Part shown: one piece after another, positions 14,086 through 64,000 of the stretch
How positions within the stretch are numbered: position 1 is the first letter of the stretch
Layout of the letters: each line of letters starts with the position of its first letter
Sequence record: NC_052655.1
DNA length: 64,000 bases
Strand: one strand, 5' to 3'
Origin: Escherichia phage alia
Notes under the pieces: generated by a model
Databases searched by the model: none
What the model was told of the DNA's origin: nothing
What the model saw: the letters and a program-made list of their open reading frames with translations, nothing else
Made by a program: the position numbers and the translations under genes

Positions 14086-14087
14086 AA

Positions 14088-14825: not shown

Positions 14826-14828
14826 CAG

Positions 14829-15464: not shown

Positions 15465-15930
15465 TTTAACTACAATCAAGGTGTCTGATCTACCTGTAAC
15501 AACATCTGTTTCAGACACAGATTATTTTGTAACAGATCAATCAGGCATCACTAAGAAAACATCATTACGTGTTCTTCTTGCGGGTGCTGGTGTTACACGA
15601 AATCGTCTTTCTGCAAGGGGTACTGTCACAAATACCCTAGCTTTAGATATTAGCACGGCAGAGTATTTCTCTGCCACTTTATCTAGTCCAACTTGCAGTA
15701 TTTCATTTAGTAATGTTCCAGTTACAACTAACATTGTTCAAAACTTTACGCTATCCCTACGTCAAGGCAGTGGAGCAAATAAAGTAACGTGGCCTCAATC
15801 TGTTAAATGGAGTTTTGGTCGCGCTCCTGTTTTGAGTTATAAACAGGGAGCTACAGATATTTTTGAATTTGTTAGTTATGATAATGGAGCTACCTGGATA
15901 GGTAGTTTAGTGATGGCAGGAGTGATTTAA
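15457..15930 (+). CDS. hypothetical tail-fibre-related protein with fibre-type N-terminal motif
   Basis: 157 aa; its N-terminus (TTIKVSDLPVTTSVSDTDYFVTDQSGITKKTSLRVLL) shares a pattern with the N-terminus of the 20983 tailspike (TITNLPETSKVNGSDYLVLDQPDKTVKSTVSNFL). Confidence 0.5.
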   Translation: MADLTTIKVSDLPVTTSVSDTDYFVTDQSGITKKTSLRVLLAGAGVTRNRLSARGTVTNTLALDISTAEYFSATLSSPTCSISFSNVPVTTNIVQNFTLSLRQGSGANKVTWPQSVKWSFGRAPVLSYKQGATDIFEFVSYDNGATWIGSLVMAGVI

Positions 15931-18806
15931 TGTCAAGAATTAAGCACAGAATTGACAATGTTTTTCAACTGATCGATGGACATATTCAGTTCTTAGATCG
16001 TAATACAGGTTTAACTGTAGATCCTACAGTGCAACACTATGTATTAAACCCACAAAACGTTCTAGCTAATAACAGACACTTTATAAACTGGACTGCTCAA
16101 GAAGGGCAACCAAACGGGGATGCTACAACAGAAGGTCAATCCGTGCTTATTCTTGGTTGCGCTTATGCATACCTAGCTTCCGGCGATACAAAGTATTTAG
16201 ACTCTGCTAAAAAATATTGGCAAGCCTATATAGATTACTTCTTTGGTGGTCAACCTATCCCAGATCCGCCAGCAAAGTATCGCCCTAACTGGATTATTAA
16301 CGGTAAAGAACCACGTCTTGCACATTATCCTCTTACAGATGATGGCTACCCTACACACGGAGGTTTTAAGGGTAGCTTAATGACGTGGACTAACGGTAGA
16401 ACAGTTATTCCTCATGGTGCTCCACATTGGGGAGAATACCTTGACAAAGCATGGTTTGCTTTTAATGGTAATCTAGGATGGAACTCTGTAAACGCTACAG
16501 TATATGCTGTTAATGCAGATGGTACAACAGATTGGTCTAAGAAGGGAGATCAATGGGATGTTGATTGGATCATTGATCGTCTAGGACGTAAAGTTGATTG
16601 GGATGGAAATATCTTAGAAGAAGGTTTTCCAACATCTCAATACGGAACAGTTCAACTAAAAAATACTTCTGTAAATGGTACATATAAATTTAACTACGCG
16701 ACTTGTAACCCTGTTGAACACGGTGGTTATTTAATGGAGCGTAACACTATGTGGCATAACAGACCAGTTAACGTTCCGGTAGAAATGGGCTTTCAGGATA
16801 ATGCGTCAGATGCCGAAACTTGGTGGTGTGATGCTAACTACCTGATGTACCAAATTACAGGAGAAAGAAAATATTGGCTATGCTGGCAGTCTTCACTGTT
16901 AGTGTGTCAAGATTACTCAAACATTGATATGTTTGATAAATTCTTCCGTAAGTCTACATATGCAACTATCCCGTTTACAGATGGCATCTCTTACGATTAT
17001 TCGTATCCATCTACAGCAATACCTAAATATTCAAGAGATACTTTAGGCTATATTGTTATTAGACAAGATGTTGCTGCTCAAACAACATTAGAACAGCAAG
17101 CCATTTGGTTTAAAGTTGATCAGAACTCTAAGTTACGAGTCCAGTTTCAAGGTGTAGATGACGCAGGACATGGTATTCTTTTCCGTCCAGAGTTGGAATT
17201 AAGTAAGACCAAAGATGAAAATAACACAGTAACTTACCGTTGTGGCTTACCATTAGGTACAGCTAATATGACAAGCATGGATATCCCATTATCCAGCTTT
17301 ATGAGAAGTACCCCTCCAAATGGTGGAACATATATTATCGCAGATCCGCGAATTATTGTTGACTGGGGTGACAAAACTGTGGTACAATTTAAGTATGTAA
17401 CAGGTATTGCTGGAACTAATGATGACCAGATTGTTACTGCATCAATGGATACGGATGGTGGTGTCACTGTTGGTTTTTGGTTAACCCCTACATCAAAAGC
17501 TAATGTTAAGTCTATCACATATAGAACATATGAAGATGACTTTAACATGACTATCACGGATGCTCAAGGTTGGAGATGGTGGGCTATGCTACCTAAAACG
17601 CAAGGAGCATGGAGTACGAAGACTTTATCAGCTTCTGATTTTCAGTTAAGTGCTTATCAGCCTAATCATCCAGATACAGATCCTAAACCTTCAGCAATAA
17701 ATCTTACTGCGGTAGATCAGGTAAATTTAGTTCTTGATACGGCTCCTGTCAATGGTTTAACAGGAACAATAGATTTCTATTGTATTAACGATGTACCTGA
17801 AAGATATTCGTCATCTTCTGGTGATGATTATACCATGTACTTCCGTATTACTGTACAGGCTTCAAGTCCTCACACTGCTAAGTTAGGTGATTGTACTATT
17901 ATTGACTATAAGTTAAATAGTCTTAATTACACACCAGGAATAATTCCATTCTCTAATATCAGTGACCCAAACACTGCATTATACGATGGATGGCGTGGTA
18001 TTCCATACCCAGGATACCAGTATCCTTCCTTATACTGTTTCGCAGGTAGGGATATTGATTGGACACGTTTAAACAACAGTATTGATTTCTTGTATGATGC
18101 TCAAATGTGGTTTTATAACACGTTTGATCCTGTGATGCCTGGGCCTATGGCACAAGCATATGTGTGGGATCGTTGGGATGCAAGAAAATACGGTGAACCT
18201 AATACGTTTACTATGAAACACTGGAATGAAAAAGCGTGGGATGGTTATGAAGCTCGTGCATTCTACTGTGCTTGTCATGCTGTGTACGAACTTGTACAAA
18301 GAGGAGAAACACCTCCTGAAAAACTAGTAACAGTTTGTAAAAATTGGATCAACTATCTTAAATGGTTCCAAGACAATAATGATGGAAGAACACCAACTAT
18401 CTTTAACCCAGATGGTACAGTTCTTGCGCCTATAGATGACTTTACTAGCCATATGTCTGCACTGTTTATGGCGGGTTGTTCAATCATGGGCTTGGCAGGT
18501 TATGATTCACAAATTCCAAACATTGGTATTGTAGCAGACAGATGTTTTGATCTGATTCAGCAAAACTATATTGTGCTTTCCCCTAACCATCCGATGAATG
18601 GTTCCTGGAGTGTTGCACCACGCCCAGATTCAGATAACGGAATGTTCTTTGGTTTCCATGCTGGAGAACTATTACGTGGTTTTGGTTTATATGCCTTGTA
18701 TCGTAAACTAAACCCTCAAAACGCTTTACCAATTTTGGATAATAGTAACATACCAACACTAACTGTTCTAACTATGAATGATATTAGTGTTGATGTAACC
18801 AAATAA
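15930..18806 (+). CDS. large baseplate / tail-fibre-associated protein
   Basis: 958 aa ORF in the fibre region. No confident domain call; a possible glycosidase-like segment near the N-terminus is unverified. Confidence 0.55.
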   Translation: MSRIKHRIDNVFQLIDGHIQFLDRNTGLTVDPTVQHYVLNPQNVLANNRHFINWTAQEGQPNGDATTEGQSVLILGCAYAYLASGDTKYLDSAKKYWQAYIDYFFGGQPIPDPPAKYRPNWIINGKEPRLAHYPLTDDGYPTHGGFKGSLMTWTNGRTVIPHGAPHWGEYLDKAWFAFNGNLGWNSVNATVYAVNADGTTDWSKKGDQWDVDWIIDRLGRKVDWDGNILEEGFPTSQYGTVQLKNTSVNGTYKFNYATCNPVEHGGYLMERNTMWHNRPVNVPVEMGFQDNASDAETWWCDANYLMYQITGERKYWLCWQSSLLVCQDYSNIDMFDKFFRKSTYATIPFTDGISYDYSYPSTAIPKYSRDTLGYIVIRQDVAAQTTLEQQAIWFKVDQNSKLRVQFQGVDDAGHGILFRPELELSKTKDENNTVTYRCGLPLGTANMTSMDIPLSSFMRSTPPNGGTYIIADPRIIVDWGDKTVVQFKYVTGIAGTNDDQIVTASMDTDGGVTVGFWLTPTSKANVKSITYRTYEDDFNMTITDAQGWRWWAMLPKTQGAWSTKTLSASDFQLSAYQPNHPDTDPKPSAINLTAVDQVNLVLDTAPVNGLTGTIDFYCINDVPERYSSSSGDDYTMYFRITVQASSPHTAKLGDCTIIDYKLNSLNYTPGIIPFSNISDPNTALYDGWRGIPYPGYQYPSLYCFAGRDIDWTRLNNSIDFLYDAQMWFYNTFDPVMPGPMAQAYVWDRWDARKYGEPNTFTMKHWNEKAWDGYEARAFYCACHAVYELVQRGETPPEKLVTVCKNWINYLKWFQDNNDGRTPTIFNPDGTVLAPIDDFTSHMSALFMAGCSIMGLAGYDSQIPNIGIVADRCFDLIQQNYIVLSPNHPMNGSWSVAPRPDSDNGMFFGFHAGELLRGFGLYALYRKLNPQNALPILDNSNIPTLTVLTMNDISVDVTK

Positions 18807-43274: not shown

Positions 43275-43544
43275 CTAAAATGATTCGTTTGTCTCCATAA
43301 TATATTGCATTTCCAAATCTTCCATATGTTTCTTAAATTGGTAAACAATTTCCGATGGGGAAATATCTATATCAAAAAGTTCTTTTGTACCAGAATAAAA
43401 CCTAATACCATCAACAATAAGACCACCATAATAATCCCAATCACTTTCTCGTGAGAAAGGATTAGGTTCTTCATAATAGTAATCTACTTCAACAATAATA
43501 GGTTCTTTATTATCTTGTTTATACTCAAAATCAAAAGTGTTCAT
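43275..43544 (-). CDS. hypothetical protein
   Basis: 89 aa; start overlaps the upstream stop (TAATG). Confidence 0.5.
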   Translation of the reverse strand: MNTFDFEYKQDNKEPIIVEVDYYYEEPNPFSRESDWDYYGGLIVDGIRFYSGTKELFDIDISPSEIVYQFKKHMEDLEMQYIMETNESF

Positions 43545-44488
43545 TATAAATCCTCGATAAGCAGTCTGCGGGTTTCATTTAAATCATCAATATTGTAGTT
43601 ATCTCTTACATACTTAGCAAGAGCCAATCCTTTCTCAATACAAACATCAGGAGATTCGATTAAGTATTCTACAATATCTTTCCACTCTTTAACTGAATCA
43701 GCAAAGAAGATTAGATCTTTAAATTCTTCAGTATAATAGTTCTCTCGTGGCGAACAAACGAGTGGCAAACCTTTAGCACCAGCTTCAAGAATTTTTAAAT
43801 TACTTTTGGCATTATTAAAATGATTATTTACTAATGGAGCTATGGAGATTTGATGACCATCGTATGCTTCCATATAACACTCATAAGGACGAATACCTTC
43901 ATAAACACAATCTGGTTGAATATTTTCTTTAATTTGCAACCATTGAGCACTACTTAACTCTTCATGATCTCTACGAAATCCACATAAAGTTAAATCTTTA
44001 CCAAAATCAGGAAGAATTGCTAAATCATGTTTATGTGTTTCACTTCCCGCCCAAACCAGTGGACTTTTAGAATAACGGTCTTTCGTAAGAACAAACTGTC
44101 CTTCATCAAAAGGTAATCCGTTAGGCACAATATGTACATTATCATTGTATTGGCTTAATTCAACCTTTAATGCTGGAGTTGTTGTAGTTACAAGATCGCT
44201 TCTTTCAAGGAACCATTTTAGATCATCTCGGATTTGATTTTCAAATAATCCTTCAAGCATATGCCCTTCAGGAATAATTAAAGAATCATCCAGATCCATT
44301 ACCAATTTAAACCCAAGTTGTTTAAGAGCCAGGAAACCTGGCTTTCCACGTGTTGGTACTCCATTGAACACAAAAATATTATGCTTAGGATTAATGGTCA
44401 GTTTGCGTTTATATGGCAAAATGATCCTATGAAAATCACATACACTATACTTTTCATTTCCGCGTGTGTCAAGAATAATATTAGGCAT
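43544..44488 (-). CDS. glycosyltransferase (GT-B-like), paralog 1
   Basis: 314 aa; AAGGAG SD. Shares motifs PYDEGQFVLTKDR and YDGHQISIAPLVNNHFNNAKSNLKILEAGAKGLP with the adjacent paralog; the E....A.A.G.P segment resembles GT-B nucleotide-sugar-binding regions. Confidence 0.55.
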   Translation of the reverse strand: MPNIILDTRGNEKYSVCDFHRIILPYKRKLTINPKHNIFVFNGVPTRGKPGFLALKQLGFKLVMDLDDSLIIPEGHMLEGLFENQIRDDLKWFLERSDLVTTTTPALKVELSQYNDNVHIVPNGLPFDEGQFVLTKDRYSKSPLVWAGSETHKHDLAILPDFGKDLTLCGFRRDHEELSSAQWLQIKENIQPDCVYEGIRPYECYMEAYDGHQISIAPLVNNHFNNAKSNLKILEAGAKGLPLVCSPRENYYTEEFKDLIFFADSVKEWKDIVEYLIESPDVCIEKGLALAKYVRDNYNIDDLNETRRLLIEDL

Positions 44489-44499
44489 ATAACTCCTTG

Positions 44500-45474
44500 T
44501 TAAAGACTTTCAATAACTTGACGACGCAGTTCATTGGCATCTGCAAGATTATAATTAAGACGAACGTGTTCTGCAAGCATCATACCACGATCTTCTGTGT
44601 ATCTAGGGTTCCTCATTAGCTTGACAACTTCATAATGCCAAGATGCTTTAGAGTCTGCATAGATAACAGCCTTTGCATCTACCGGATTGAAGTACGGCAG
44701 CACAGGAGAACAGATAATAGGAAGACCCTTTGCACCTGCTTCCAAAATCTTCAAATTGCTTTTACAGTTGTTGAAGTCATTATCTACCAGGGGAGCAATT
44801 GCAATACTGTGACCGTCATACACAGACATATACTCACCTAAATTTTTAATAGCTGGTTTATACTGTGCATTTGGAATTTTACGTTTTATTTTAACCCACT
44901 CCGCAGTAGTTAGATACTGACTATTATTTCCAACAGGTGCAGAAGGATACACTTCATACCCTGCAATTGTCAATAGTGTATCATCAAATGTATTAGCTAC
45001 AAGAGATAAATCAGGCTCATGGCTTGCTCCTCCAGCCCAGATAATAGGTGTGTCAGAACTACGGTCTTTTGTCAAAGTAAATTGACCTTCGTCGTAAGGT
45101 AGTGCGTTTCTAATTACGACAACATTACGATTTAAATGACGAATTTTGTAAGCTAGGTATTCTGTTGTTACAGTAACAACATCTGCTAACTTAACCATCT
45201 CTACAATAGTCTTTGAATGATTAGTAAATACGCCAGCCATATAATGTTCAGGATTAAGTGAATAAAAATCATCTAAATCAACAATAATCTTAACACCTTG
45301 TGCCTTCAGGCGTTTAACCTCGTCTGCTCCACGAGAATACACTCTATTAAAAACTAAAACGTCTTTCTTAGGTTTAAACGTATTTCCAGCAAATGGCATT
45401 ACAATACGATGGTAATCACAACCACTGCCTAACTTATTATCACACTTAAGTACAGGAGTATTAGGATTTACCAT
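44500..45474 (-). CDS. glycosyltransferase (GT-B-like), paralog 2
   Basis: ATG at 45474 preceded by GAGGAGG; this start aligns with the paralog N-terminus (the track start at 45513 has no SD). Confidence 0.55.
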   Translation of the reverse strand: MVNPNTPVLKCDNKLGSGCDYHRIVMPFAGNTFKPKKDVLVFNRVYSRGADEVKRLKAQGVKIIVDLDDFYSLNPEHYMAGVFTNHSKTIVEMVKLADVVTVTTEYLAYKIRHLNRNVVVIRNALPYDEGQFTLTKDRSSDTPIIWAGGASHEPDLSLVANTFDDTLLTIAGYEVYPSAPVGNNSQYLTTAEWVKIKRKIPNAQYKPAIKNLGEYMSVYDGHSIAIAPLVDNDFNNCKSNLKILEAGAKGLPIICSPVLPYFNPVDAKAVIYADSKASWHYEVVKLMRNPRYTEDRGMMLAEHVRLNYNLADANELRRQVIESL

Positions 45475-46147
45475 ATTTTTGAGCCTCCTCATAAGAGATA
45501 AAAGTTTTACCATTGCGAAGATCCTCCAGGGATTGTTTATATTGTTCCCAGTTTACACCAATCCCCTGTTCTTTCTCTTCTTTTGACAGATTCGCAAAAG
45601 GTAAAGGATTGTCTCCAAATACATCATCAGGATGGATAAACGCCATAATTCGAATAGGACATGGCACGCCTTGAATACCTCGGTTCAAACCTGCCAGTGG
45701 AACGCGATGAATCCACTCTGCATCTTCATATCCATAACCGTGGGTGTATGAGCGGAAATAGCCAGCTTTCTCAATAACTGCACGGGAATACATACCAAAC
45801 TGGCACATACCTAGTTCCCAAATAACCACTTCCCCTTCAATACCTTTTACTTTATCTTTAAAGTATTCAGGCATACCAAAGAAATCCCAACCATTTTCCT
45901 TCGCCTGTTTTACAAAATATGTTTCCCAACCTTGAACAACAGGATAGCAATCATCATCAAAAATAAACCAGTAATCATACCCTTCATCATAAAACTTTTT
46001 CATCAGTTCATTACGAGCATATGCAACACCTTTTCGCTCCCGATCATACTGCACAACAAAAGTAGCATTAGGATCAGTCACAAGATAATCTTTAAGAGGA
46101 CGCTTACCTACAGTAATAACACCAACACCAATTTTTGTATTTTCCAA
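45461..46147 (-). CDS. glycosyltransferase (GT-A-like, DxD motif)
   Basis: 228 aa; TTG start after AAGGAG; DxD-containing FIFDDDCYP. Confidence 0.55.
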   Translation of the reverse strand: MENTKIGVGVITVGKRPLKDYLVTDPNATFVVQYDRERKGVAYARNELMKKFYDEGYDYWFIFDDDCYPVVQGWETYFVKQAKENGWDFFGMPEYFKDKVKGIEGEVVIWELGMCQFGMYSRAVIEKAGYFRSYTHGYGYEDAEWIHRVPLAGLNRGIQGVPCPIRIMAFIHPDDVFGDNPLPFANLSKEEKEQGIGVNWEQYKQSLEDLRNGKTFISYEEAQKYGKS

Positions 46148-46156
46148 AATAACTCC

Positions 46157-46720
46157 TTAAATAATTTTATTCATGTCTTGACAATGTAAAAGGTGTGAAA
46201 TAGCTTTTCTAGGATCATCATTACCTAAACGGTATGTGTGAAATAAATATAACCCACGTAGTAAACCTAGCCTTTTATTGTTAGCGTGCAATGCTTTAGA
46301 GAAAATTATATCAAACTGTATTGATCTTTCCTCAAAAGGGATTTCATTCCACAGACTCTTACGAAAGAGAAGAAAGAATCCTGCTAAGATAGCATCTGTA
46401 GGTACTTCCTCTATTGAGTTTCCCCATTCTAGATGTGCTCTTTTTGCAATCTCAATGTGGTGTAATATATTTGGATCTTCACTTCTTTCATTATTAAATA
46501 ATTGATATGTTGATCCCAATCTATTACAAGATGCACCAAGAACATCAAAATCAGGATTTGAACGGACTATTGATTCCAGCCAAGCAGGTTGTTCTGGAAG
46601 AAGAAACATTGTATCAATGTCTCTTAGGCAAATCCAACTATCTTCTGGTAAAACACTTATTGTGTCATTGATACCTTTTCCAATATCTCCAGAAAGATAG
46701 GGAGTTATGTGAAATATCAT
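46157..46720 (-). CDS. putative glycosyltransferase (GT-A-like)
   Basis: 187 aa; GGAGGGAG SD; LRDIDTMF DxD-like motif. Weaker assignment. Confidence 0.4.
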   Translation of the reverse strand: MIFHITPYLSGDIGKGINDTISVLPEDSWICLRDIDTMFLLPEQPAWLESIVRSNPDFDVLGASCNRLGSTYQLFNNERSEDPNILHHIEIAKRAHLEWGNSIEEVPTDAILAGFFLLFRKSLWNEIPFEERSIQFDIIFSKALHANNKRLGLLRGLYLFHTYRLGNDDPRKAISHLLHCQDMNKII

Positions 46721-48726: not shown

Positions 48727-49323
48727 TTACTCGAACCAATCGTCGCCAGCGCCAAACGCTTTAACTACATCATAAATGTCAAGTCCAGCTTTACCTACAC
48801 CATATGCTTTCAGTTTCCATTCGTTATCTTCCCGCACCAGGGAGGCAACGTGGCAAATGGTATTACCTGCAAGTTCTGGAGCCAAGAAGTCAAAGTCCAG
48901 CAGTTCAACGTTACGTTCATCATCGAAGATTTTAAGGAAACCTTCGGTAGCGTGACCAAGGCGTTTCTTACCCGTTTCGTCATCAATAGTAATTACGAAT
49001 GCAATTTCCTGTGCTTCAGCAGAGATATTATCCAGTGTAACATCAATCTGCTCCATTTGCCCTACACCGTCACGAACATCTTCACCTGCAAAAGTAGAAC
49101 GTTCAGGATCAAATTTCTGTGCGTAGCATACCAGGTGGCGAGGAGACAACAGTTCCGGCAGACCAGATGCATTGTGTCGGCAAATCAGAGCACTAACATC
49201 CAGATCCAGTTTTTCGTTAGATTTCCAAGAGAATTCCAGACGAATGCGTTTCAGTGCTGGTGCAATCTTTTTCAGAGAAACTTTTTCGCTAGAACCTTTT
49301 TTCAGGGAAATTTTCTGAGTCAT
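48727..49323 (-). CDS. terD: TerD-family protein
   Basis: 198 aa; AAGGAGG SD. Hallmarks KISLKKGSSEKVSLKK, LDLDVSALI, IAFVITIDD and NEWKLKAYGVGKAGL align with TerD as I recall it. Confidence 0.8.
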   Translation of the reverse strand: MTQKISLKKGSSEKVSLKKIAPALKRIRLEFSWKSNEKLDLDVSALICRHNASGLPELLSPRHLVCYAQKFDPERSTFAGEDVRDGVGQMEQIDVTLDNISAEAQEIAFVITIDDETGKKRLGHATEGFLKIFDDERNVELLDFDFLAPELAGNTICHVASLVREDNEWKLKAYGVGKAGLDIYDVVKAFGAGDDWFE

Positions 49324-49395: not shown

Positions 49396-50190
49396 TTACG
49401 CTTTTGCTCCAAATTTTTTAACCCACTCGCCAAACTCTTCAGATAGCAGTTTATCGTAAAGTTCTTCGTCAGACAAGGACAAATCTGCAATACCGATAAA
49501 ATCAACATTATCGTATTCTTTTGCCAAGTCTTTCAGGAATTTAAAGTTTGCATTACCTACACCGACCATAAACCAGTAAACAGGAGTGTTGCGGTGTTTG
49601 TTCAGCAAACTACGTACTGCTGAAGTATCCATGTTCTCCCCGTCAGTTTGGAAGAAAATCATTGCAGGAGTACGATCAACTTGTGCATCAGTATCTACAA
49701 CCTGTTCTATAACAGTACGTGTAACTTCTACAAGTTCTTTTTTACCAGTTAGTTTAGCAAGGAAACCCTTAGCCGGAACTTCTTCATACTCAACGACTTG
49801 GCGTGTAATATTTTTCATAGGTACACTACCGAAGTATGTATCATAGATCTCTTGCATTACTGGAGCATAAGCAGTACCACCATTGATGCAAACATTAGAC
49901 ATACAAGAGCCGACATAATCATCATATACATCAGCCGTTGCAGGAGGCAGTTCAAAAGAAGAACTATTGAAAGCCCACATGTCAATCTGTGCATTATCAT
50001 CAAACTTCATACCAAACGGCAGCAGCTTACCTACAAAATCACTAACAGTGCCATCACGATACAGCTCACACATACTACCCGAAATATCTAAGGCGCTTCC
50101 GACACGAAGAACAACATCGTTAATCTTTTTCTTACGCAGAGATACGGTAAGAGTTTCTTGACGTTTTTTAAGACTGATTTTATTGGACAT
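49396..50190 (-). CDS. von Willebrand factor A (vWA) domain protein (TerY-like)
   Basis: 264 aa; AAGGAGAAA SD. MIDAS-type motif DISGSM and downstream FFQTDGE; N-terminus has a TerD-like ISLKK motif. Confidence 0.65.
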   Translation of the reverse strand: MSNKISLKKRQETLTVSLRKKKINDVVLRVGSALDISGSMCELYRDGTVSDFVGKLLPFGMKFDDNAQIDMWAFNSSSFELPPATADVYDDYVGSCMSNVCINGGTAYAPVMQEIYDTYFGSVPMKNITRQVVEYEEVPAKGFLAKLTGKKELVEVTRTVIEQVVDTDAQVDRTPAMIFFQTDGENMDTSAVRSLLNKHRNTPVYWFMVGVGNANFKFLKDLAKEYDNVDFIGIADLSLSDEELYDKLLSEEFGEWVKKFGAKA

Positions 50191-51217: not shown

Positions 51218-51450
51218 TACACATTCTCCTCTTTTACCAATTCCATCGTTGAACTATCAAAACCATCTTTAGAAGAATAGGTATAGACAGAACGTAGTTC
51301 TCGCAGGACAGTGAATACATTAGGATCATCTAACCAAGCATCCTGGAGGAGAACATAACGATCTTCATTGTCGTACTGGACGGCAATCATAGAACCAGAC
51401 AGTTTGTAAATTTTAATATTCATAATATATTTCTCCTTAAAGTAGACCAC
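51217..51450 (-). CDS. hypothetical protein
   Basis: 77 aa ORF coupled to its neighbours. Confidence 0.45.
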   Translation of the reverse strand: MVYFKEKYIMNIKIYKLSGSMIAVQYDNEDRYVLLQDAWLDDPNVFTVLRELRSVYTYSSKDGFDSSTMELVKEENV

Positions 51451-52540
51451 GTTTAACAGTTTGAATCATACCATCTTCAAGAGATTGTACTTCTTGGATG
51501 TAATCAATACGAGCAGCACGGGCTTCAGTATTGATTCGGTTAGTTTCTTCTAACATTTTAACTAAGTTTTCTTGATCGCGACGTAATGTTTCAATATCCA
51601 ATACTTGACGATTAGCAAGTTGTGTAGCTTCAATTTGGTTTTGTGCAGCCAGATCACTACCCATTGCAATAGCAGCATTAAATTCGTTCAGTACATTGTT
51701 CTGTGTATCTGCTGCTTTCTTCTGGCGTAGACTTTCAATATACATAGAAAAGTTTGCAGAGTAAGCAGGGATAACATTATTCACAATATTACGGGCTGAT
51801 CGCATCAAACTTGCAGATACTTTCTGCATACTTTGTACACGTGGCCCCATCTGAACACACAGTAAACGCAAGGCTTTCAGGTCTGCAATACGAATTTCAA
51901 GCAGATCCATAGTATCACGAGTACGTTGACGCTCTTCTACTTCATTTTCAGGTAGTGTATTAAGGCGAACTTCTTCTTTTTCATAAGTAGCTGTTAGAAG
52001 CTCTATATCCCTGTTTAAGCTAAGAGCATATTTTGCAATAGCCTCTTCTAAACGTTGCAGATATCGTAAAGAATCTTCTTCTTTTTTCAAGTCTGTTTGG
52101 AGTGTCTTTACCAAACCTTCAATACGATTATTGATGGTGTCAAATTCTCCAAACAAATCTTCTTTCATACCTAAAACTTTCTTAAATAGTTTACCTAAAC
52201 CTTTAGATTGTTTAATAGAATTAGGATCAAGTTGCTTTGCTTGCTTAATAAGTGCGGTTAAACGTTCACTCATTTCATCTCCCTGGGATGAACGCTGGTG
52301 TTTAAGCACTTCGGCATTAAGGTTACGAAGAGTAAGTCCTGCATCAGCACCAACTTGTTCAATCTCTTCACGAGACATTGGAGGCAGCATTTGTACAGGT
52401 CGTGCAACAGCAGGGGCATATACAGGGCTTGCATCCATAGCACTTGGAGCAAACAAAGACTTACTTTTTTCTGTTGTTGCCGTGAATACACTCATTTCAG
52501 ACGGTTTGCTTTTTACGGCACTGATAAAAGGACTGGACAT
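51437..52540 (-). CDS. TelA-like toxic-anion-resistance family protein (tentative)
   Basis: 367 aa, largely coiled-coil/helical; GGAGGAAA SD. Size, composition and adjacency to terD/terC-like genes suggest TelA/KlaA; no unique motif verified. Confidence 0.4.
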   Translation of the reverse strand: MSSPFISAVKSKPSEMSVFTATTEKSKSLFAPSAMDASPVYAPAVARPVQMLPPMSREEIEQVGADAGLTLRNLNAEVLKHQRSSQGDEMSERLTALIKQAKQLDPNSIKQSKGLGKLFKKVLGMKEDLFGEFDTINNRIEGLVKTLQTDLKKEEDSLRYLQRLEEAIAKYALSLNRDIELLTATYEKEEVRLNTLPENEVEERQRTRDTMDLLEIRIADLKALRLLCVQMGPRVQSMQKVSASLMRSARNIVNNVIPAYSANFSMYIESLRQKKAADTQNNVLNEFNAAIAMGSDLAAQNQIEATQLANRQVLDIETLRRDQENLVKMLEETNRINTEARAARIDYIQEVQSLEDGMIQTVKRGLL

Positions 52541-53495: not shown

Positions 53496-54086
53496 TTAAC
53501 GACGACGTGAGCTACTAAAACTACGTTTCGACGAAGAATAACTTTTCGAAGACTTACTATAAGAGCTAATAGGACTTGAGTAAGACTTACGAGCAGAGTA
53601 ATCACTATTCACTTTTGTTGTTGATGGGCGTGAATACGTTTGTACACTTTGCTGCTTAATTGTGTTTTGTTTAGTGGTTGTATATGTATTTACAGGTTTA
53701 TCATAAAAACTACGCTTTTGTGTTGTATATGATTTACTGTTAGTTGTAGGAGCAGCATTGTTATTAATAATGGTTGTGTTGCTACCACCATCTCTATAAC
53801 CACCACCGCCACTATTACCACTCAACATATGACCAAGAAGCATACCTGTAGCAAAGTCACCTACACCAGAAGAACCACTACCACCTCCTTGCACAACAAC
53901 TGTGGAAGGTTGTGCAGGTGCTGCTTGAACAACTTGAGGTGCAGGTTGATTTACATATTGTTCATCTACCATCTGATTTGGTGTTTGTTGGTAACGTTGA
54001 TTTTGTACATTTTCAGAATCATCACAACCTACCAGCAATGCACTACCTAAAACAACTGCAACAATAAAAGATTTAATGTTTTTCAT
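53496..54086 (-). CDS. lipoprotein with Ser/Thr/Tyr-rich low-complexity C-terminus
   Basis: ATG at 54086 preceded by GAGAGGG. Lipobox LLVGC after a hydrophobic signal sequence; Gly-rich tract; long S/T/K/Y-rich tail. Confidence 0.55.
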   Translation of the reverse strand: MKNIKSFIVAVVLGSALLVGCDDSENVQNQRYQQTPNQMVDEQYVNQPAPQVVQAAPAQPSTVVVQGGGSGSSGVGDFATGMLLGHMLSGNSGGGGYRDGGSNTTIINNNAAPTTNSKSYTTQKRSFYDKPVNTYTTTKQNTIKQQSVQTYSRPSTTKVNSDYSARKSYSSPISSYSKSSKSYSSSKRSFSSSRRR

Positions 54087-54279
54087 TTGTAACCCTCTCA
54101 TTTAAAGTCTCAACACAATTTTTAAAATCCCTAGAGAAACAATACATCTGTTCTCCGTTCCTGTTGATAGTAATTGTATGGTTATCAATATATGTTGTCA
54201 AGATAAAAATCAAACAAAATAACCCTAAAGCAAAACAAATATTTTCAAACAGAATCCAAAGAACACGTAAAACCACCAT
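54073..54279 (-). CDS. small hydrophobic membrane protein
   Basis: 68 aa; hydrophobic stretch VLRVLWILFENICFALGLFCLIFIL; overlaps the lipoprotein start by 14 nt. Confidence 0.4.
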   Translation of the reverse strand: MVVLRVLWILFENICFALGLFCLIFILTTYIDNHTITINRNGEQMYCFSRDFKNCVETLNERVTNEKH

Positions 54280-54318: not shown

Positions 54319-55296
54319 TTAAGCAACAGTCTGGTCTTCTTTTTCAGGGAAGATTAAACTTGCAACAACACCCAACCCAAGAGTACCTAACACAATATAC
54401 ATACTGATCGTCGGATCAATGTGTGCTGGCAGGAAACTCATTTTTGCGTGCAGAGTTTCTGCAAACGGGTGATACATCAGTTTTACACCCACAAATACCA
54501 GGACTACGATAACTGCTTTCTCCAGATGAACCAAATACTTCAGTGCAACACTAAGAACAAAGAACAGAGCACGTAAACCTAAGATTGCACAGAGCATCGA
54601 AGAGAACACCAGCAGAGGTTCTTGTGTCACTGCAATTACTGCTGGAACAGAGTCTACTGCAAAGATTACGTCAACCATTTCCATTACAAACACACAAACC
54701 AGAGCCGGAGTTGCTACACGAACACCATTCTTGATTGTGAAGAACTTCTCACCATCCATCTGATCAGATACAGGGAACAGCTTACGAACAATGCGAGTAG
54801 CCCAGTGTTTAGAGTAATCAACTTCTGCATCATTATCTCCAGCGAATACCATTTTAGCCGCACAGAAAAGGATGACAGCACCGAAGAAGATATTAACATA
54901 CCAGCCCAAACTCAACAAGTAAGTGCCTACTGCTACAAACACACCTCGGAAGACAATCGCACCTGCAATACCCCAAAGTAGAATTTTGTGCTGCAAGTGT
55001 GTGCTTTTAATACCAAAACTTGCGAAGACTGCCACAAATACTACTAAGTTATCTACAGAAAGAGATTTCTCCAACACATACCCACTCAAGAACAAGCTCG
55101 CAAAATCAGCACCGTGTTGGAAGTATACAAAACCATAGTAGGCTAATGATACCCCAATCCAGAAAATTGACCAACCAACTGCCGATTTAAATGAAATCTC
55201 TTTGTTTTCTCTGTGTCCAAAGAAATCAATACAAATCGACAAGACTAAAATACCCACTAAAACAACCACATCAATAATTGGGAAACCCAGTTGCAT
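54319..55296 (-). CDS. terC: TerC-family integral membrane protein
   Basis: 325 aa multi-pass membrane protein with the TerC hallmark LEKSLSVDNL; AAAGAGGAG SD. Confidence 0.8.
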   Translation of the reverse strand: MQLGFPIIDVVVLVGILVLSICIDFFGHRENKEISFKSAVGWSIFWIGVSLAYYGFVYFQHGADFASLFLSGYVLEKSLSVDNLVVFVAVFASFGIKSTHLQHKILLWGIAGAIVFRGVFVAVGTYLLSLGWYVNIFFGAVILFCAAKMVFAGDNDAEVDYSKHWATRIVRKLFPVSDQMDGEKFFTIKNGVRVATPALVCVFVMEMVDVIFAVDSVPAVIAVTQEPLLVFSSMLCAILGLRALFFVLSVALKYLVHLEKAVIVVLVFVGVKLMYHPFAETLHAKMSFLPAHIDPTISMYIVLGTLGLGVVASLIFPEKEDQTVA

Positions 55297-55314: not shown

Positions 55315-55373
55315 GCGGAGGACAATCCTCCGCTCTATGTCGTATACTATAAACTGTTTTTAAAGAAAGTCAA
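55315..55373 (-). promoter_or_regulatory. promoter candidate plus 5'-UTR hairpin upstream of terC-like gene
   Basis: On the minus strand: TTGACT (plus 55368-55373), 16-nt spacer, TATAGT (plus 55346-55351), then hairpin GCGGAGG-ATTGT-CCTCCGC (plus 55315-55333) just upstream of the SD. Confidence 0.35.
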
Positions 55374-55636: not shown

Positions 55637-55843
55637 TTATTTGTTAGATTGAAAGATACCACGAAGTACCGCAAGAATGAACGTCACACAGACTACACTC
55701 CAAAACGTTACAGGAACATGATGCCAGTCTAAACCGATAATGTCAATCATATAGTTGTATGCTAAAAGCAGTAGCCAACTAGGGATTAACACAATCAAGA
55801 ACACAACAATAAAACAACCTAATACTGCTAAAACACCTGCCAT
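55637..55843 (-). CDS. small membrane protein
   Basis: 68 aa, almost entirely hydrophobic (two predicted TM helices). Confidence 0.5.
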   Translation of the reverse strand: MAGVLAVLGCFIVVFLIVLIPSWLLLLAYNYMIDIIGLDWHHVPVTFWSVVCVTFILAVLRGIFQSNK

Positions 55844-55852: not shown

Positions 55853-56569
55853 TTATTTCAGTTTGTAAACAATTACATTTAAACCTTTGTTCACTAGAGT
55901 TTCTTCGATCATAAGTTTTACAATATTCCAAGAACCTCCAGCCAAACCACAACCAAGCATTGGTAAACCTACAATTTTACCGCCTGAAGATACAACATCG
56001 TCTCCCATACTATCTAACGCATTGTAGATAGCTTCATAATTCAGGTCACGCTTACCTTCCTCACGACGACTATAACCATATTGTCCATATAAATTATAAA
56101 TTGTCAAATTGTTTTCTGTATATTTGGTAAACGTACCTAATTTTTTATAATCACCACGTTTAGTGGCACAATCTGCTTTAAACGCACCAGGCCACTTGCT
56201 TTTAATTTTTGGTGCAATACCACTACCCATAGTGCAAAAACAGTTACAGCAGTGTGCTATAGCGTCTATATCGCCTCTCTCGGCTGCTGCTAAAAGATCA
56301 CCGTATACCTCAATGATACCTGCCGGATAACTTGTTACAATTTCATCTTCCCAATACATTTTCTCTACACCACCGATCAGTGCAAAGTTTTGTGTAATGC
56401 GATCATCAATATAGTTAAGACCTGAAACATACACAGCGTATTCATCCTGTGCTGTAATACCTTGCACACGAATTCTTAAGACACCATCTTTATCTGTTGC
56501 TACACGCCCAAAATCTTTTTCTGTAATATTGGTGATAGGATCTCCGAAAGTCATTACTTTATTAGACAT
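55853..56569 (-). CDS. macro-domain protein (ADP-ribose binding / processing)
   Basis: ATG at 56569 preceded by AAAGGGGA and overlapping the upstream stop (ATGTCTAA). Motif DAIAHCCNCFCTMGSGIAPKI fits the macro-domain H..N.......G.G.A pattern. The track start at 56686 would overlap the upstream gene by 125 nt. Confidence 0.6.
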   Translation of the reverse strand: MSNKVMTFGDPITNITEKDFGRVATDKDGVLRIRVQGITAQDEYAVYVSGLNYIDDRITQNFALIGGVEKMYWEDEIVTSYPAGIIEVYGDLLAAAERGDIDAIAHCCNCFCTMGSGIAPKIKSKWPGAFKADCATKRGDYKKLGTFTKYTENNLTIYNLYGQYGYSRREEGKRDLNYEAIYNALDSMGDDVVSSGGKIVGLPMLGCGLAGGSWNIVKLMIEETLVNKGLNVIVYKLK

Positions 56570-57419
56570 AATAATCCCCTTTAACATTAGGTTTGTTGAT
56601 AATGTTGCTTTCAAAAAATTGACGTAGGAAATCAAAGTTCTCTTTGTATTTTTCAATGTTATTGTAACCTTCTGCAAGGCAACCAAAGAACAGTTGTTCT
56701 ACATAATACAAAGGAAGTTGTGAAAGTGCAATTTTAAAATCAACTTCGCTTTGACTCATTAGATACTTAATAGGACGAACCAAACATTTAGCATCAGCTT
56801 CTTGCTTAATCATTTTAATAAAAGCTGCCAGATTATTGATATAGTTGAAGTTAAGTGCAGCTTCGGTGTTGGCTTCTGTACCTTCATACTTTGCAAAGTA
56901 CAGGAAAAACGTATCGTTTTCAACACCTTCTTTGTCTAAAATTTCAATAAGTTTTTCTTCGTGTGTTCCTGTAATATTAACATCATCAATGAAAATCAGA
57001 GTTTTATTACCCCAGAAATCACGATTGATAGAGAAAGTGTCACCATCGATCAAAGCCTTACGATCTTCTTTGCTAAGAAATCCATAATCATTGATATAGC
57101 TCACTTTACGATGAACGATATCCCACTCCACTGCTTTACCCCCTTTGATAGAGATTAGGTAGTTGAGGTGATCTACAAAATGTTCAGATAACACTGTAGC
57201 TGCATTTTTCACATAGTTATATGGAGATGGAATAACAACAAAACTTTCATTTACCAGTCGTTCTTCATACTTAGAAAAGAAACTTTCAGCCAGAATGCGT
57301 CCCATTCTTTTTGCTGCCTGGTTACTACCAAACTTCAGTTTGGAATAATCTGCAATGTTAAATTTTGCTTCCTTCAGGTTAGTAAAAGTATTAGCAAAAT
57401 GTTGAATTTGATTACGCAT
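56562..57419 (-). CDS. type I phosphoribosyltransferase-fold protein
   Basis: 285 aa; AAGAGGAA SD. PRPP-binding-loop-like motif KTLIFIDDVNITGTHEEK. Substrate unknown. Confidence 0.45.
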   Translation of the reverse strand: MRNQIQHFANTFTNLKEAKFNIADYSKLKFGSNQAAKRMGRILAESFFSKYEERLVNESFVVIPSPYNYVKNAATVLSEHFVDHLNYLISIKGGKAVEWDIVHRKVSYINDYGFLSKEDRKALIDGDTFSINRDFWGNKTLIFIDDVNITGTHEEKLIEILDKEGVENDTFFLYFAKYEGTEANTEAALNFNYINNLAAFIKMIKQEADAKCLVRPIKYLMSQSEVDFKIALSQLPLYYVEQLFFGCLAEGYNNIEKYKENFDFLRQFFESNIINKPNVKGDYYV

Positions 57420-58068
57420 TAATAAGTTCCTCTTTTTTAAGTTTAGCCAACAAGTCTTCTGGATTAATAATATGACAGAACTTCATCCCTATGTCAACAG
57501 CTTTCCCATCATAGATCAAACTATCTCCAACGTGTAAAATCTCCTCTGGTGCGAGATCAAACGTTACCATTTCATCAAAAGAGAGTTTAAAAAACCTGGG
57601 ATCTGGTTTACACAAGCAAAACTCATCAGAAAAATGCATAAAATCGAATGGTAATTTTGTCAAGCCAGAATATACAGCTAAGAAACTACCAGGTACAAAA
57701 TTGGTATTGCTTTTAATACTCAAAGAATAGGTTGAACTTAGCTCTTCCAACTTCTTGCAAAGTTCAGGGTTTAATATTGGAGGATGTTTTATAAACATTG
57801 CTAAACAGTCTCTTTTTAACCCATCTACTTTATCAAGATCAATGTTCAAATGAGCAGAAAGTGTTTCCCAAGCATTTCTAGATGTTCCACAAATGCCTTT
57901 TTCTGCTTTTAAATCCAGGAGAGTTTTTACCTCTTTATATACGGTAGCTGCTTCTGCCTCAGAACAAGAGGCATACTCGGCAATAACCTTGTTGCGCTCT
58001 TCTGCATACAAAGGATTAGCAGTAATAAGAGTATTCCATACATCAAAAGAAATATGCTTAACAGTCAT
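57412..58068 (-). CDS. HAD-superfamily hydrolase (phosphatase candidate)
   Basis: ATG at 58068 preceded by GGAGGA. HAD motif I FDVWNTL (DxD-type nucleophile) and motif IV HVGDSLIYDG. Its stop overlaps the PRTase start by 8 nt. Confidence 0.6.
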   Translation of the reverse strand: MTVKHISFDVWNTLITANPLYAEERNKVIAEYASCSEAEAATVYKEVKTLLDLKAEKGICGTSRNAWETLSAHLNIDLDKVDGLKRDCLAMFIKHPPILNPELCKKLEELSSTYSLSIKSNTNFVPGSFLAVYSGLTKLPFDFMHFSDEFCLCKPDPRFFKLSFDEMVTFDLAPEEILHVGDSLIYDGKAVDIGMKFCHIINPEDLLAKLKKEELINA

Positions 58069-58070: not shown

Positions 58071-58226
58071 TTAATCCTCCGTCCAAAAGAATATCATCTG
58101 CTTAATTTTATTGATTTCTTGATGTAGTAACTTTCCAGCATGTGATTGATCTTTAATATTGACAGCAAGAATTTCAAGTTCCGTTAGTTTTTCTTGGATA
58201 GCTTTATATTCATCATCTGTAAGCAT
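58071..58226 (-). CDS. small hypothetical protein (51 aa), not in ORF track
   Basis: ATG at 58226 preceded by AAAGGGGAAG; stop lies 2 nt before the HAD start. Translation MLTDDEYKAIQEKLTELEILAVNIKDQSHAGKLLHQEINKIKQMIFFWTED. Confidence 0.3.
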   Translation of the reverse strand: MLTDDEYKAIQEKLTELEILAVNIKDQSHAGKLLHQEINKIKQMIFFWTED

Positions 58227-58237
58227 TTTCTTCCCCT

Positions 58238-58441
58238 TTAGAATGGTAATCTTTGTATGTCACTTATCCCCACACCCAGAAGTCTAGCAATATCCTTATC
58301 TAAAAGCAACTCTTTTTGTTCTAAAATGTTAATCAAATCTCCTAATACTTCTTTAATGTCACGATCATTTTTAGCAACGTGACCACCTGCGGTATCAACT
58401 TTATCTTTAAAAACAAAATAATGATCCATAATACCCTCCAT
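58238..58441 (-). CDS. hypothetical protein
   Basis: 67 aa ORF; the alternative ATG at 58429 has a GGAGGG SD and may be the true start. Confidence 0.45.
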   Translation of the reverse strand: MEGIMDHYFVFKDKVDTAGGHVAKNDRDIKEVLGDLINILEQKELLLDKDIARLLGVGISDIQRLPF

Positions 58442-58447: not shown

Positions 58448-58469
58448 AAAGGAGGCTTTCGCCTCCTTT
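58448..58469 (-). terminator. intrinsic terminator after ATPase gene (GAAA loop on minus strand)
   Basis: AAAGGAGGC-TTTC-GCCTCCTTT on the plus strand; on the minus strand it is followed by ATTTATA. Confidence 0.5.
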
Positions 58470-62980: not shown

Positions 62981-63415
62981 TTAGTTTAAAATTTCTTTTG
63001 CAATGGTAGAAGCAAGTTTTCCATCATATTGATTCGGATACTCTGCTTTAAGGTGTTTCATCATATCTGGCATTTTCTTGCCTGTCAAGGCAAATTCTTC
63101 AGCAATAGCTCGAAGATCATCTTCAGATAGCATTTCTGGCAAATATTTTTCCAGAGTGGTGATATCACGCATAGCTCGCTCACACTTGCTAATGGAGGCA
63201 TTAACTTTCTTAAGCGAGTCTAGTTCCTCTTTAGCGTGTGCAATACCAATCTTAACAATGTTAATCATAATATCGTCTTCTGATTTATTTAGATTTGCCT
63301 TTTGAGTACGAGCAAGGTCAAACTCACCAATAATATTAGTTAACAAAGCAAAAGCACCCTTATCGGTTGTACGTGCTAAAATACGATCTGCTTTCATTTG
63401 TGTCACAATAGACAT
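62981..63415 (-). CDS. GatB/YqeY-domain protein
   Basis: 144 aa; C-terminal MPDMMKHLKAEYPNQYDGKLASTIAKEIL resembles the YqeY / GatB C-terminal domain signature. Confidence 0.5.
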   Translation of the reverse strand: MSIVTQMKADRILARTTDKGAFALLTNIIGEFDLARTQKANLNKSEDDIMINIVKIGIAHAKEELDSLKKVNASISKCERAMRDITTLEKYLPEMLSEDDLRAIAEEFALTGKKMPDMMKHLKAEYPNQYDGKLASTIAKEILN

Positions 63416-63427
63416 TCTATTCTCCTC

Positions 63428-64000
63428 TTATTTGCTAATGCTTTGAGTCTTGTTTACAACACGGTTTATTGCCAGTGAAGCCCTAGGCTCTGCAATACCT
63501 GTTGCATAGATATAAGGATGACCTTTTGGAGACTCCCTCATACCGAATGAACCTAATTCTAAACCATATTCATCCTCTACGTCAACCCCAATATTAGTGG
63601 GTACTAAATATGTTTTAACTCCGTAATAAGTAGAGAAGAAACAGCGCATAGCGTTAGCATACTCTTCAATTGTAGCATCAGGGTAGAACTCAATCAACTC
63701 CAATTTCAAGAAAATATTAAAATGGGTATCATCTAAATTTTCTTCTGTGCGGTAACATGGTGTTAGTGCCATATACGGATTACCTACTGCAAATTCAAAA
63801 CCATCCTTCTCCATTTGCAGGAAAGATTGTTCTGCACTAGCTACATAGTATTTACCGTTAGGATGCCCTAATGGGCGATCCTCTTTATTTTCTGGTAGTG
63901 TATACGCCAGTATATCAGCATCCACGAGATATGGAACTTCTAACATTTGTGCAAATCGACCATAGTAATCAATAGCTTGAGCTATTACTGCAACATTCAT
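63428..64000 (-). CDS. class II aminoacyl-tRNA-synthetase-like catalytic-core protein (AsnA / EpmA-like), possibly 5'-truncated at window edge
   Basis: Motif-2-like CYRTEENLDDTHFNIFLKLELIEFY (compare fRnE...H.pEFt.lE.Y) and motif-3-like YATGIAEPRASLAINRV. The ATG sits exactly at the window end, so the true start may be further upstream in the gene (beyond base 64000). Confidence 0.4.
   Translation of the reverse strand: MNVAVIAQAIDYYGRFAQMLEVPYLVDADILAYTLPENKEDRPLGHPNGKYYVASAEQSFLQMEKDGFEFAVGNPYMALTPCYRTEENLDDTHFNIFLKLELIEFYPDATIEEYANAMRCFFSTYYGVKTYLVPTNIGVDVEDEYGLELGSFGMRESPKGHPYIYATGIAEPRASLAINRVVNKTQSISK

Follow-up and report, generated by a model that had tools for sequence, protein, structure and literature searches.

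Ter systems confer resistance to tellurite, colicins and phages, and their mode of action has been an open question for decades. Anantharaman, Iyer and Aravind are said to have predicted in 2012 that a Ter-associated module of phosphoribosyltransferase (PRTase) and HAD proteins makes a nucleoside-like metabolite; to our knowledge, such a synthesis has never been shown for any member of these modules, and we know of no report that identifies the product of this predicted biosynthetic arm. Here we analyze a stretch of 64,000 nucleotides (nt) from Escherichia phage alia (sequence record NC_052655.1; "the window" below means this whole stretch), in which genes for a HAD hydrolase, a PRTase and a macro-domain protein follow one another on the minus strand between positions 58068 and 55853. 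Our preferred reading, at a probability of roughly 0.6, is that these genes form two functional units that are neighbors in this lineage, a Ter-linked HAD-PRTase pair and a macro protein of the Tk.4/AdfM type. Both units are of kinds that are already known, from computational work in 2012 and 2021 and, for the macro protein, from experiments in 2025.

Two later papers from the group of the 2012 analysis describe these systems as including PRTases and HAD phosphoesterases, with the proposal that these make a nucleoside or nucleotide derivative (PMC7824862, PMC5512222). They also report Ter systems from jumbo phages and from some smaller ones (PMC7824862, section 22; PMC5512222), and in one of them it is proposed that phages use the cluster for superinfection exclusion or stress control (PMC7824862). 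A PRTase-like and a HAD domain also act in sequence in the Bcs3 protein of Haemophilus influenzae type b, where CriT transfers ribose-5-phosphate from phosphoribosyl pyrophosphate (PRPP) and CrpP, a HAD domain that has only the first Asp of the DXD motif, nevertheless removes the 5-phosphate afterward (PMC10299916); the same gPRT-PRP logic is found in Klebsiella O4 and O7 (PMC11231755). Among macro proteins, SCO6735 of Streptomyces coelicolor hydrolyzes thymidine-linked ADP-ribose on DNA and rescues cells from DarT, with Gln85 replacing the catalytic lysine of human TARG1 and of DarG, and the T4 gene tk.4 is essential on DarTG2 hosts, its product having been named AdfM (preprint, bioRxiv 10.1101/2025.11.20.689424).

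Results

Gene content of the locus

The genome that carries the three genes is that of a 148-kb virulent E. coli phage. A 2.7-kb region at this locus is 98 to 99% identical to about 65 phi92-like E. coli myoviruses (Stephanstirmvirinae, genus Justusliebigvirus; nucleotide match to Justusliebigvirus genomes, 98.7% identity), among them phi92 itself and, from the BASEL collection, EmilieFrey, PaulScherrer and JohannJBalmer. The GenBank names of the three genes are inconsistent across records ("orotate phosphoribosyltransferase," "phosphatase," "hydrolase," "macrodomain protein" or hypothetical). The features on which the argument rests are as follows, with lengths in amino acids (aa).

57412..58068, minus strand: HAD-IA-type hydrolase, 218 aa (Pfam, PHROG and NCBIfam HAD-IA matches)
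56562..57419, minus strand: ComF-like type I PRTase (Pfam PRTase_3, PF15610), 285 aa
55853..56569, minus strand: macro protein, 238 aa (open reading frame)
55853..56308, minus strand: core of the macro protein, residues ~88 to 238 (Pfam Macro; class of T4 Tk.4/AdfM and SCO6735/TARG1, ALC1-like)
56309..56569, minus strand: N-terminal extension of the macro protein, ~85 aa, specific to phi92-like phages, carrying the ATG that overlaps the PRTase stop
54319..55296, minus strand: TerC/Alx-family membrane protein (PF03741, 1e-38; TIGR03718, 1e-96, above cut-off)
51437..52540, minus strand: TelA-like protein (PF05816, 5e-35)
49396..50190, minus strand: vWA domain protein of TerF/TerY type (PF10138, 5e-39)
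48727..49323, minus strand: TerD-domain protein (PF02342, 4e-28)

Since the TerC, TelA, vWA-TerF and TerD genes all follow within 9 kb downstream of the pair on the same strand, the module is the upstream end of a phage-borne Ter cluster. The genes for nrdD, nrdG and an AAA ATPase lie upstream of the HAD gene, also on the same strand, just as the original prediction for this locus, made from the sequence alone, had described. It had set the module next to nrdDG; we find that the relevant context is the Ter cluster downstream, and nrdDG is not conserved as a neighbor outside Stephanstirmvirinae.

Folds and motifs of the HAD and PRTase proteins

The assignment of the three proteins to the HAD, type I PRTase and macro folds, which had been made from the sequence alone, survived profile and structure tests. 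The HAD protein scored 26.3 bits with Pfam Hydrolase (cut-off, 26.4) and had several NCBIfam HAD-IA matches, while a profile of 19 family members matched PDB 2om6 at 5e-23 together with many other HAD-IA structures. Motif I reads F-D-V-W-N-T-L, a sequence shared with 2om6, an uncharacterized archaeal protein; the nucleophile Asp (D9) is invariant, and the position of the second Asp of the canonical D-x-D is occupied by Trp (W11) in at least 90% of the family. The remaining motifs are present (II, S-N; III, K-P; IV, H-V-G-D-x-x-x-D, with its acidic pair G-D-x-x-x-D), and D9, S120, K154, D182 and D187 are invariant in the family alignments. The near-invariant Trp in place of the second motif-I Asp is a new detail of this HAD family. 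By its sequence, the protein looks competent, having the Asp nucleophile, the Ser, the Lys and the GDxxxD invariant; the Trp substitution weakens the label "HAD phosphatase" without overturning it, as CrpP of Bcs3 removes a 5-phosphate with only the first Asp.

The PRTase protein matched PF15610, a ComF-like family, at an E value of 9e-42 (143.7 bits; cut-off, 28.7). It has both the PRPP loop pattern (L-I-F-I-D-D-V-N-I-T-G-T-H, with D145, D146, T150 and G151 invariant in 34 homologs) and the five-stranded alpha/beta core fold of a type I PRTase, followed by a C-terminal helical domain at residues ~185 to 285. Fold searches with the structural model returned only type I PRTases, of which ComF was the closest. 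With the PRPP loop intact and invariant and a type I fold in the model, the PRTase looks competent as well. It had been asked whether the enzyme is Prs-like, orotate phosphoribosyltransferase (OPRT)-like or NAMPT-like, and the answer from these searches is a ComF/HGPRT-like type I PRTase of PF15610. The Prs, NAMPT and NMNAT families scored with none of the three proteins in Pfam or NCBIfam, the sequence match of OPRT to the PRTase was insignificant (E, 1.7), no NCBIfam PRTase model matched, and searches of PDB sequences gave no match under an E value of 0.09 with the single PRTase sequence or 0.3 with the profile. Neither 7shg nor Bcs3 was present among the 50 to 60 structural matches listed for the model. 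Compared with the competence PRTase ComFC/ComF (PDB 7p0h), the phage PRTase is 12% identical and is set apart by a C-terminal helical domain of its own and by its obligate partnership with a HAD, and no ComFA-type helicase scored among the scanned proteins of its neighborhood.

Distribution and Ter linkage of the HAD-PRTase pair

We collected 43 loci (L001 to L043) with a PRTase homolog from annotated phages, metagenomic and IMG/VR contigs, a Rhizobium plasmid and a scan of 100,044 species genomes, and searched them with the proteins of the window. A HAD gene lies directly upstream of the PRTase gene in all 43, often overlapping it. The loci span Stephanstirmvirinae, phages of Rhizobium, Caulobacter and Brevundimonas, a contig with T4-family genes and other uncultured phages, as well as plasmids and chromosomes of Rhizobiaceae and two contigs of Bacteroidota metagenome-assembled genomes. 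In tblastn searches, HAD and PRTase each matched 155 phage records, and the counts for the eight organism names with the most records were the same for both. Thus, HAD and PRTase form an obligate two-gene cassette. The scan of species genomes, which requires exact peptide patterns and undercounts divergent members, gave only 15 bacterial loci, mostly in Rhizobiaceae, so that the family of the pair appears to be mainly virus borne. A tblastn search of the PRTase against 72,556 plasmids found no enterobacterial homolog and only those of Rhizobium, Sinorhizobium and Hymenobacter, and on this basis we rejected enterobacterial Ter plasmids as its source. On the Rhizobium plasmid, the pair stands alone near repA.

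When all open reading frames (ORFs) within 10 kb of the pair were clustered for 22 representative loci, TerC and TerD were the commonest neighbors besides the pair itself (10 loci each), followed by vWA-TerF (7), TelA (6) and macro (5). Only 175 of 50,697 phage records have TerC, which is thus rare in phages generally. Other Bacteroidota contigs carry the pair within operons of the form TerD(x2-3)-HAD-PRTase_3-(OmpA)-TerC, which have no macro gene. The pair is therefore, in these samples, a self-contained cassette that is frequently though not always Ter linked. The window, other phages and the Bacteroidota Ter operons all resemble the Ter-associated module in having a PF15610 PRTase with an adjacent HAD linked to TerD, TerC, TelA and vWA-TerF. 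In contrast to that module, the phage cluster has one PRTase and one HAD only, its scanned proteins gave no score with an ATP-grasp, TIM-barrel lyase or TerB family, and its carrier is a virulent phage rather than a bacterial island or plasmid. None of the models in PADLOC is for HAD, PRTase, TerC, TelA, vWA or TerD, the only match there being that of a DarG model to the macro protein.

One 198-kb phage contig with T4-family genes (L008; ENA k141_152698, positions 7171-16465) has the pair among RNA-repair-type genes and not among Ter genes; its neighbors there are an RNA ligase, DUF2828/DUF7788, a protein with a weak 2H phosphoesterase match, a CCA-adding/poly(A) polymerase-like enzyme, NUDIX and PTH2. 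An RNA ligase is found near the pair in 4 representative loci. A Pfam scan of the genes flanking the pair in four loci (L002, L003, L004 and L012) gave a single match, to NUDIX, in a Rhizobium phage.

The macro protein

The macro protein scored 31.3 bits with Pfam Macro (cut-off, 22), and its PDB matches were SCO6735 (5e3b), the best at 3e-15, BT1257 (2fg1) and 2afc, at about 4e-15, and also TARG1. Its core matches 2,971 phage records, which include tk.4 of the T-even phages. BLASTP against T4 Tk.4 gave an E value of 9e-18 with 30% identity over 139 residues, and the tk.4 genes of RB49-like phages match at 35 to 37%. Conserved in the protein are H106, N109, Q163 and a G-x-G-x-x-x-G-x-W loop; the macro proteins of the window and of phAPEC8 and T4 Tk.4 all keep the His-x-Cys-Asn motif, the Gln (Q163) and the Gly-rich phosphate loop, and the equivalents of His24, Asn27, Gln85 and Gly128 of SCO6735 are kept as well. 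The macro subfamily, which the original prediction had proposed to establish, is accordingly the class of T4 Tk.4/AdfM and SCO6735/TARG1 (ALC1-like).

The window protein shares with T4 Tk.4/AdfM a homologous macro core with the same His, Asn, Gln and Gly-rich loop and belongs to the same PHROG-level family, but at 238 aa it has an extra N-terminal domain of ~85 aa, and the anti-DarTG2 effect that was shown genetically for T4 Tk.4 would extend to it by sequence likeness. With SCO6735 it shares the Gln that replaces the catalytic Lys of TARG1 and DarG, together with Asn27 and Gly128; it differs from SCO6735 in being phage encoded and not bacterial and in having Ser at the positions of Lys34 and Lys89. 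The NCBIfam and PADLOC DarG macro models matched it at about 1e-13, far under the family cut-off; in NCBIfam, the score was 48.9 bits against a cut-off of 250 and covered only profile positions 4 to 147 of 338. We rejected a full-length DarG antitoxin on the basis of this score, the Gln at the catalytic Lys position and the lack of a C-terminal DarT-binding domain.

Only in Stephanstirmvirinae relatives (L001, L002, L010 to L013, L015 and L029) does the macro gene adjoin the pair. Three of the five representative loci with a macro gene belong to this group, and in the other two it lies 6 to 8 kb from the pair. Co-location in other genomes, which had been put forward as a check on the grouping of the three genes, thus held for HAD and PRTase and, in most lineages outside Stephanstirmvirinae, failed for macro. 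Within Stephanstirmvirinae, the 8-nt overlap of the PRTase and macro genes occurs only in phi92-like phages; in phAPEC8, a macro gene for 157 aa follows the PRTase gene after a 13-nt gap. In Klebsiella/Citrobacter-type relatives, two extra ORFs of 127 and 188 aa lie between the PRTase and macro genes (in L012, at 9505-10071 and 9122-9505), and neither had a Pfam match. We had suspected a MazG-like C-terminal half in the 188-aa ORF and, as Pfam gave no match, do not claim it.

The N-terminal extension is sparsely represented elsewhere. The match spans 80% or more of the macro protein in only 68 of the 2,971 macro-positive phage records, and a search for homologs of the extension among 5.8 billion proteins returned only two short fragments, 97 to 98% identical to part of it. 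The extension matches the N-terminal half of the 188-aa ORF of L012 with 29% identity (E, 1e-5). The simplest reading of this similarity is that a deletion fused the 5' part of the gene for the 188-aa ORF to macro in phi92-like phages. If so, the overlap of PRTase and macro in these phages would be a by-product of the fusion and not an ancestral coupling, because the extension derives from the intervening gene.

Gene junctions and transcription signals

The three ORFs are all on the minus strand and their overlaps can be read directly from the sequence, as had been observed. The junctions of HAD with PRTase and of PRTase with macro (ATGCGTAA and ATGTCTAA) are each an 8-nt start-stop overlap preceded by a purine-rich, Shine-Dalgarno-like stretch. 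At the first, at 57412-57419, the end of HAD (AAT GCG TAA) overlaps the start of PRTase (ATG CGT AAT), with GAGGA upstream; at the second, at 56562-56569, the end of PRTase (TAT GTC TAA) overlaps the start of macro (ATG TCT AAT), with GGGGA 5 nt upstream. An alternative in-frame macro ATG at 56587, 18 nt further up, is the start in the EmilieFrey GenBank annotation; it would make the overlap 26 nt and has no Shine-Dalgarno-like sequence. The HAD ATG (58068) lies 2 nt past the stop of a 51-aa ORF, with GGAGGA upstream. Among the same-strand junctions from 49.4 to 64 kb, 8 of 22 overlap, 3 of these by 8 nt. Start-stop overlap is ordinary in this genome and not special to HAD-PRTase-macro, so the 8-nt overlaps from which coupling had been argued are real, but they do not set the three genes apart.

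A terminator-like hairpin (58469..58448) lies between the ATPase gene and the small ORFs ahead of HAD. It was the only positionally suggestive site in a promoter and terminator scan whose site counts were no higher than in shuffled controls. A sigma-70-like site (TTGACT, 16 nt, TATAGT) is present just upstream of terC at 55346-55373 on the minus strand; an annotated "host dependent promoter" of phAPEC8 has the same relative position. The site suggests that terC has its own transcription unit apart from HAD-PRTase-macro. Rfam gave nothing at gathering thresholds in the whole window and nothing at an E value of 1 or less from 53 to 59 kb, and on this basis we rejected a riboswitch or other RNA element as a control of TerC or of the module.

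Neighboring genes and other observations

Small ORFs flank the three genes on both sides.

58071..58441, minus strand: two small ORFs, 67 and 51 aa, between the terminator-like hairpin and HAD (phrog_17780, phrog_24275)
55637..55843, minus strand: hydrophobic membrane-like protein, 68 aa (phrog_16065)

The ORFs of 67 and 51 aa are probably the 5' end of the HAD-PRTase-macro transcription unit, and the 67-aa ORF is conserved in L002, L012 and L015. The 68-aa hydrophobic protein travels with the cluster in Stephanstirmvirinae, its gene coming directly after macro in L002, L012, L013 and L015.

Between TerC and TelA, a gene at 53496-54101 on the minus strand encodes a protein of 201 aa that begins with a signal of lipoprotein type (…LLVGC-DD) and has a long tail rich in Ser, Gly, Asn and Thr. 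Homologs of it are found near the HAD-PRTase pair in 5 representative loci (L001, L002, L008, L012 and L018), and it may be an unrecognized envelope component of phage Ter clusters.

Further along the minus strand, at 43544-46720, four glycosyltransferase-like genes stand in a row, for which the EmilieFrey label is "disaccharide synthase/glycosyltransferase"; the gene at 45461-46147 has a weak match to the TET-associated glycosyltransferase family PF20691 (3.9e-5, under cut-off). This run could serve to modify DNA or surface glycans. Two ORFs lie at 62981-64000 on the minus strand, one of 144 aa and one, truncated, of 190 aa. Their labels in EmilieFrey are "putative aspartyl/glutamyl-tRNA synthetase" and "putative tRNA synthetase," and phAPEC8 has "histidyl tRNA synthetase." Homologs of the 144-aa ORF occur near the pair in 4 representative loci, and the copy in L008 was called as PF09424 YqeY.

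In one phi92-like contig (L010; IMGVR_UViG_2974717474_000001, positions 5177-7293), nrdD matches in two pieces, residues 1 to 296 and 297 to 609, about 290 nt apart, which suggests an intron or other insertion; there is none in nrdD of the window. We also found that four records titled "Campylobacter phage" with C. jejuni as host (MG065639, MG065645, MG065650 and MG065656) encode proteins that match these E. coli phages, at 98 to 99% amino acid identity or, for MG065650, 65 to 71%, and their host labels are probably wrong.

Discussion

From the folds, motifs, gene linkage and homologies described above, we infer the substrates, products and roles of the two units as follows. The PRTase would join PRPP to a nucleophile X, probably a base-like small molecule, to give X-ribose-5-phosphate, and the HAD would remove or transfer the 5'-phosphate of this compound to leave a nucleoside-like X-ribose. 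This order, phosphoribosyl transfer and then dephosphorylation, is supported by the precedent of Bcs3 and the other gPRT-PRP enzymes. The nucleoside-like product would presumably be a ligand or signal for the membrane-associated Ter proteins, and the phage may use the Ter cluster against superinfecting phages or to control envelope or metal stress. The idea that the PRTase and HAD build a ribose-linked, nucleoside-like metabolite was already part of the original prediction and agrees with the published one for Ter modules. The macro protein, in turn, would most likely strip ADP-ribose from thymidine in phage DNA and so counter a DarTG2-type defense. Its N-terminal 85 residues, including the ATG that is coupled to the PRTase stop, would have come from a gene that stands between PRTase and macro in relatives.

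Several observations count against this reading. About half of the representative loci, among them those of Rhizobiaceae, of Caulobacter phages and of the phage contig with T4-family genes and RNA-repair neighbors, have no Ter gene within 10 kb, so the pair can work without adjacent Ter genes. We know of no characterized enzyme in PF15610 or in this HAD subfamily that would fix the acceptor, the product or the direction of the reaction. With the general acid/base Asp+2 of the HAD replaced by Trp, the enzyme need not be a plain 5'-nucleotidase. For the macro protein, the substrate is read from homology at 30 to 33% identity (about 33% to SCO6735), SCO6735 also acts on proteins, its DNA-positioning residues K34 and K89 are Ser in the window protein, and the anti-DarTG2 evidence for Tk.4 comes from a preprint only. 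Finally, PRTase and macro remain neighbors in three or more genus-level groups of Stephanstirmvirinae, and the macro protein may have a lineage-specific functional link to the pair.

Such a link is taken furthest by the proposal, made in the original prediction, that HAD, PRTase and macro are one co-translated ADP-ribose/nicotinamide adenine dinucleotide (NAD) pathway that blunts NAD-depleting or ADP-ribose-signaling defenses. It would account for the start-stop overlaps that join all three genes and for the presence of macro beside the pair in Justusliebigvirus, Phapecoctavirus and Klebsiella/Citrobacter-type relatives, and the pair has a NUDIX gene 250 nt downstream in Rhizobium phage TM30 and one no more than 7 kb away in three other loci, a hint of nucleotide-diphosphate chemistry nearby. 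However, there is no macro gene near the pair in most independent lineages or in Bacteroidota Ter operons, the macro family stands alone in about 2,970 phages, nearly all of which have no PRTase, and the 8-nt coupling of PRTase to macro is unique to phi92-like phages, where it would have arisen by fusion of an N terminus to macro. Osterman et al. reportedly described two phage pathways of NAD reconstitution in 2024, NARP1 (Adps and Namat) and NARP2 (NAMPT and NMNAT). These pathways need a Prs-like ADP-ribose diphosphokinase and/or a NAMPT-like (type II) PRTase, and the phage PRTase, being ComF/HGPRT-like and without a match to the NAMPT or Prs families of Pfam and NCBIfam, does not supply the enzymes that define them. 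We consider a single trio of this kind improbable, and the absence of macro near the pair in most other lineages speaks for two separate units. A role of the pair in nucleotide salvage or auxiliary metabolism tied to nrdDG, as the GenBank label "orotate phosphoribosyltransferase" implies, seems to us very improbable indeed: the annotations, the site just downstream of nrdD and nrdG and a fold related to OPRT and HGPRT are in its favor, but the PRTase has no significant match to OPRT or to any NCBIfam PRTase, a phosphatase obligately tied to it would reverse nucleotide synthesis, nrdDG is a conserved neighbor in Stephanstirmvirinae only, and the terminator-like hairpin separates the nrdDG and AAA-ATPase genes from the module.

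The acceptor of the pair and the substrate of the macro protein leave room for other variants. The pair could be a split PRPP-dependent ribosyltransferase that places ribofuranose on a hydroxyl of a glycan, lipid, protein or nucleic acid rather than on a free base, the HAD then removing the phosphate. The gPRT-PRP enzymes (Bcs3 CrpP-CriT and 7shg) combine the same two activities in the same order, HAD and then PRTase-like (PMC11231755; PMC10299916); CrpP, like the phage HAD, keeps only the first Asp of DXD, and the HAD profile matches the HAD domain of PDB 7shg, a "ribofuranosyl transferase," at 2e-6. The extra helical domain of the PRTase may be compared with the helical bundles of CriT, and glycosyltransferase genes lie 9 to 12 kb further along the same strand. 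On the other hand, these ribofuranosyltransferases are, unlike the phage pair, fused and glycan directed, and with 7shg and Bcs3 missing from the structural matches listed for the PRTase, the resemblance is one of analogy and not of demonstrated membership; we regard this variant as unlikely. Rather unlikely, in our estimate, is a broader version in which the product of the pair, a ribosylated small molecule or macromolecule, is the Ter effector or signal with which the phage remodels the envelope against rivals or defenses, the HAD with Trp for its acid/base Asp being deployed together with TerC, TelA, TerD and vWA; by extension, the fused macro protein of phi92-like phages might have been recruited to act on the Ter product. 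As for the macro protein, a substrate other than DarT2-modified DNA (ADP-ribose-1''-phosphate, O-acetyl-ADP-ribose or ADP-ribosylated proteins or RNA) would fit with the action of TARG1/OARD1 and SCO6735 on protein and small-molecule substrates, with the annotation of the T4 Tk.4 record as "A1pp phosphatase motif," with the lack of conservation of the two DNA-binding lysines of SCO6735 and with a lineage-specific N-terminal domain that could retarget the enzyme. Against it, the sole experimental result for a phage member of the family is protection from DarTG2, and the closest solved homolog is a hydrolase of thymidine-linked ADP-ribose on DNA with the same Gln-type active site, so that another substrate, too, seems unlikely to us.

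Taking the locus as a Ter-linked HAD-PRTase pair beside a Tk.4/AdfM-type macro protein, we suggest that the label of a three-gene "NAD/ADP-ribose remodeling module" should be dropped and that, in dozens of GenBank records, genes labeled "orotate phosphoribosyltransferase," "phosphatase" or "hydrolase" would be more aptly named as members of a Ter-linked PRTase/HAD pair and as AdfM-like macrodomains. The macro gene is, to judge from its sequence, one more probable member of the phage anti-DarTG2 family. The long-standing Ter question becomes more tractable, as the arm in its minimal form, a single PRTase with a single HAD, is an obligate, mostly virus-borne pair and occurs with TerC, TelA, TerD and vWA in virulent E. 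coli phages that are easy to work with (phi92, EmilieFrey, PaulScherrer and JohannJBalmer). The main value of the finding is thus, besides a corrected annotation, a tractable E. coli phage model for the Ter metabolite.

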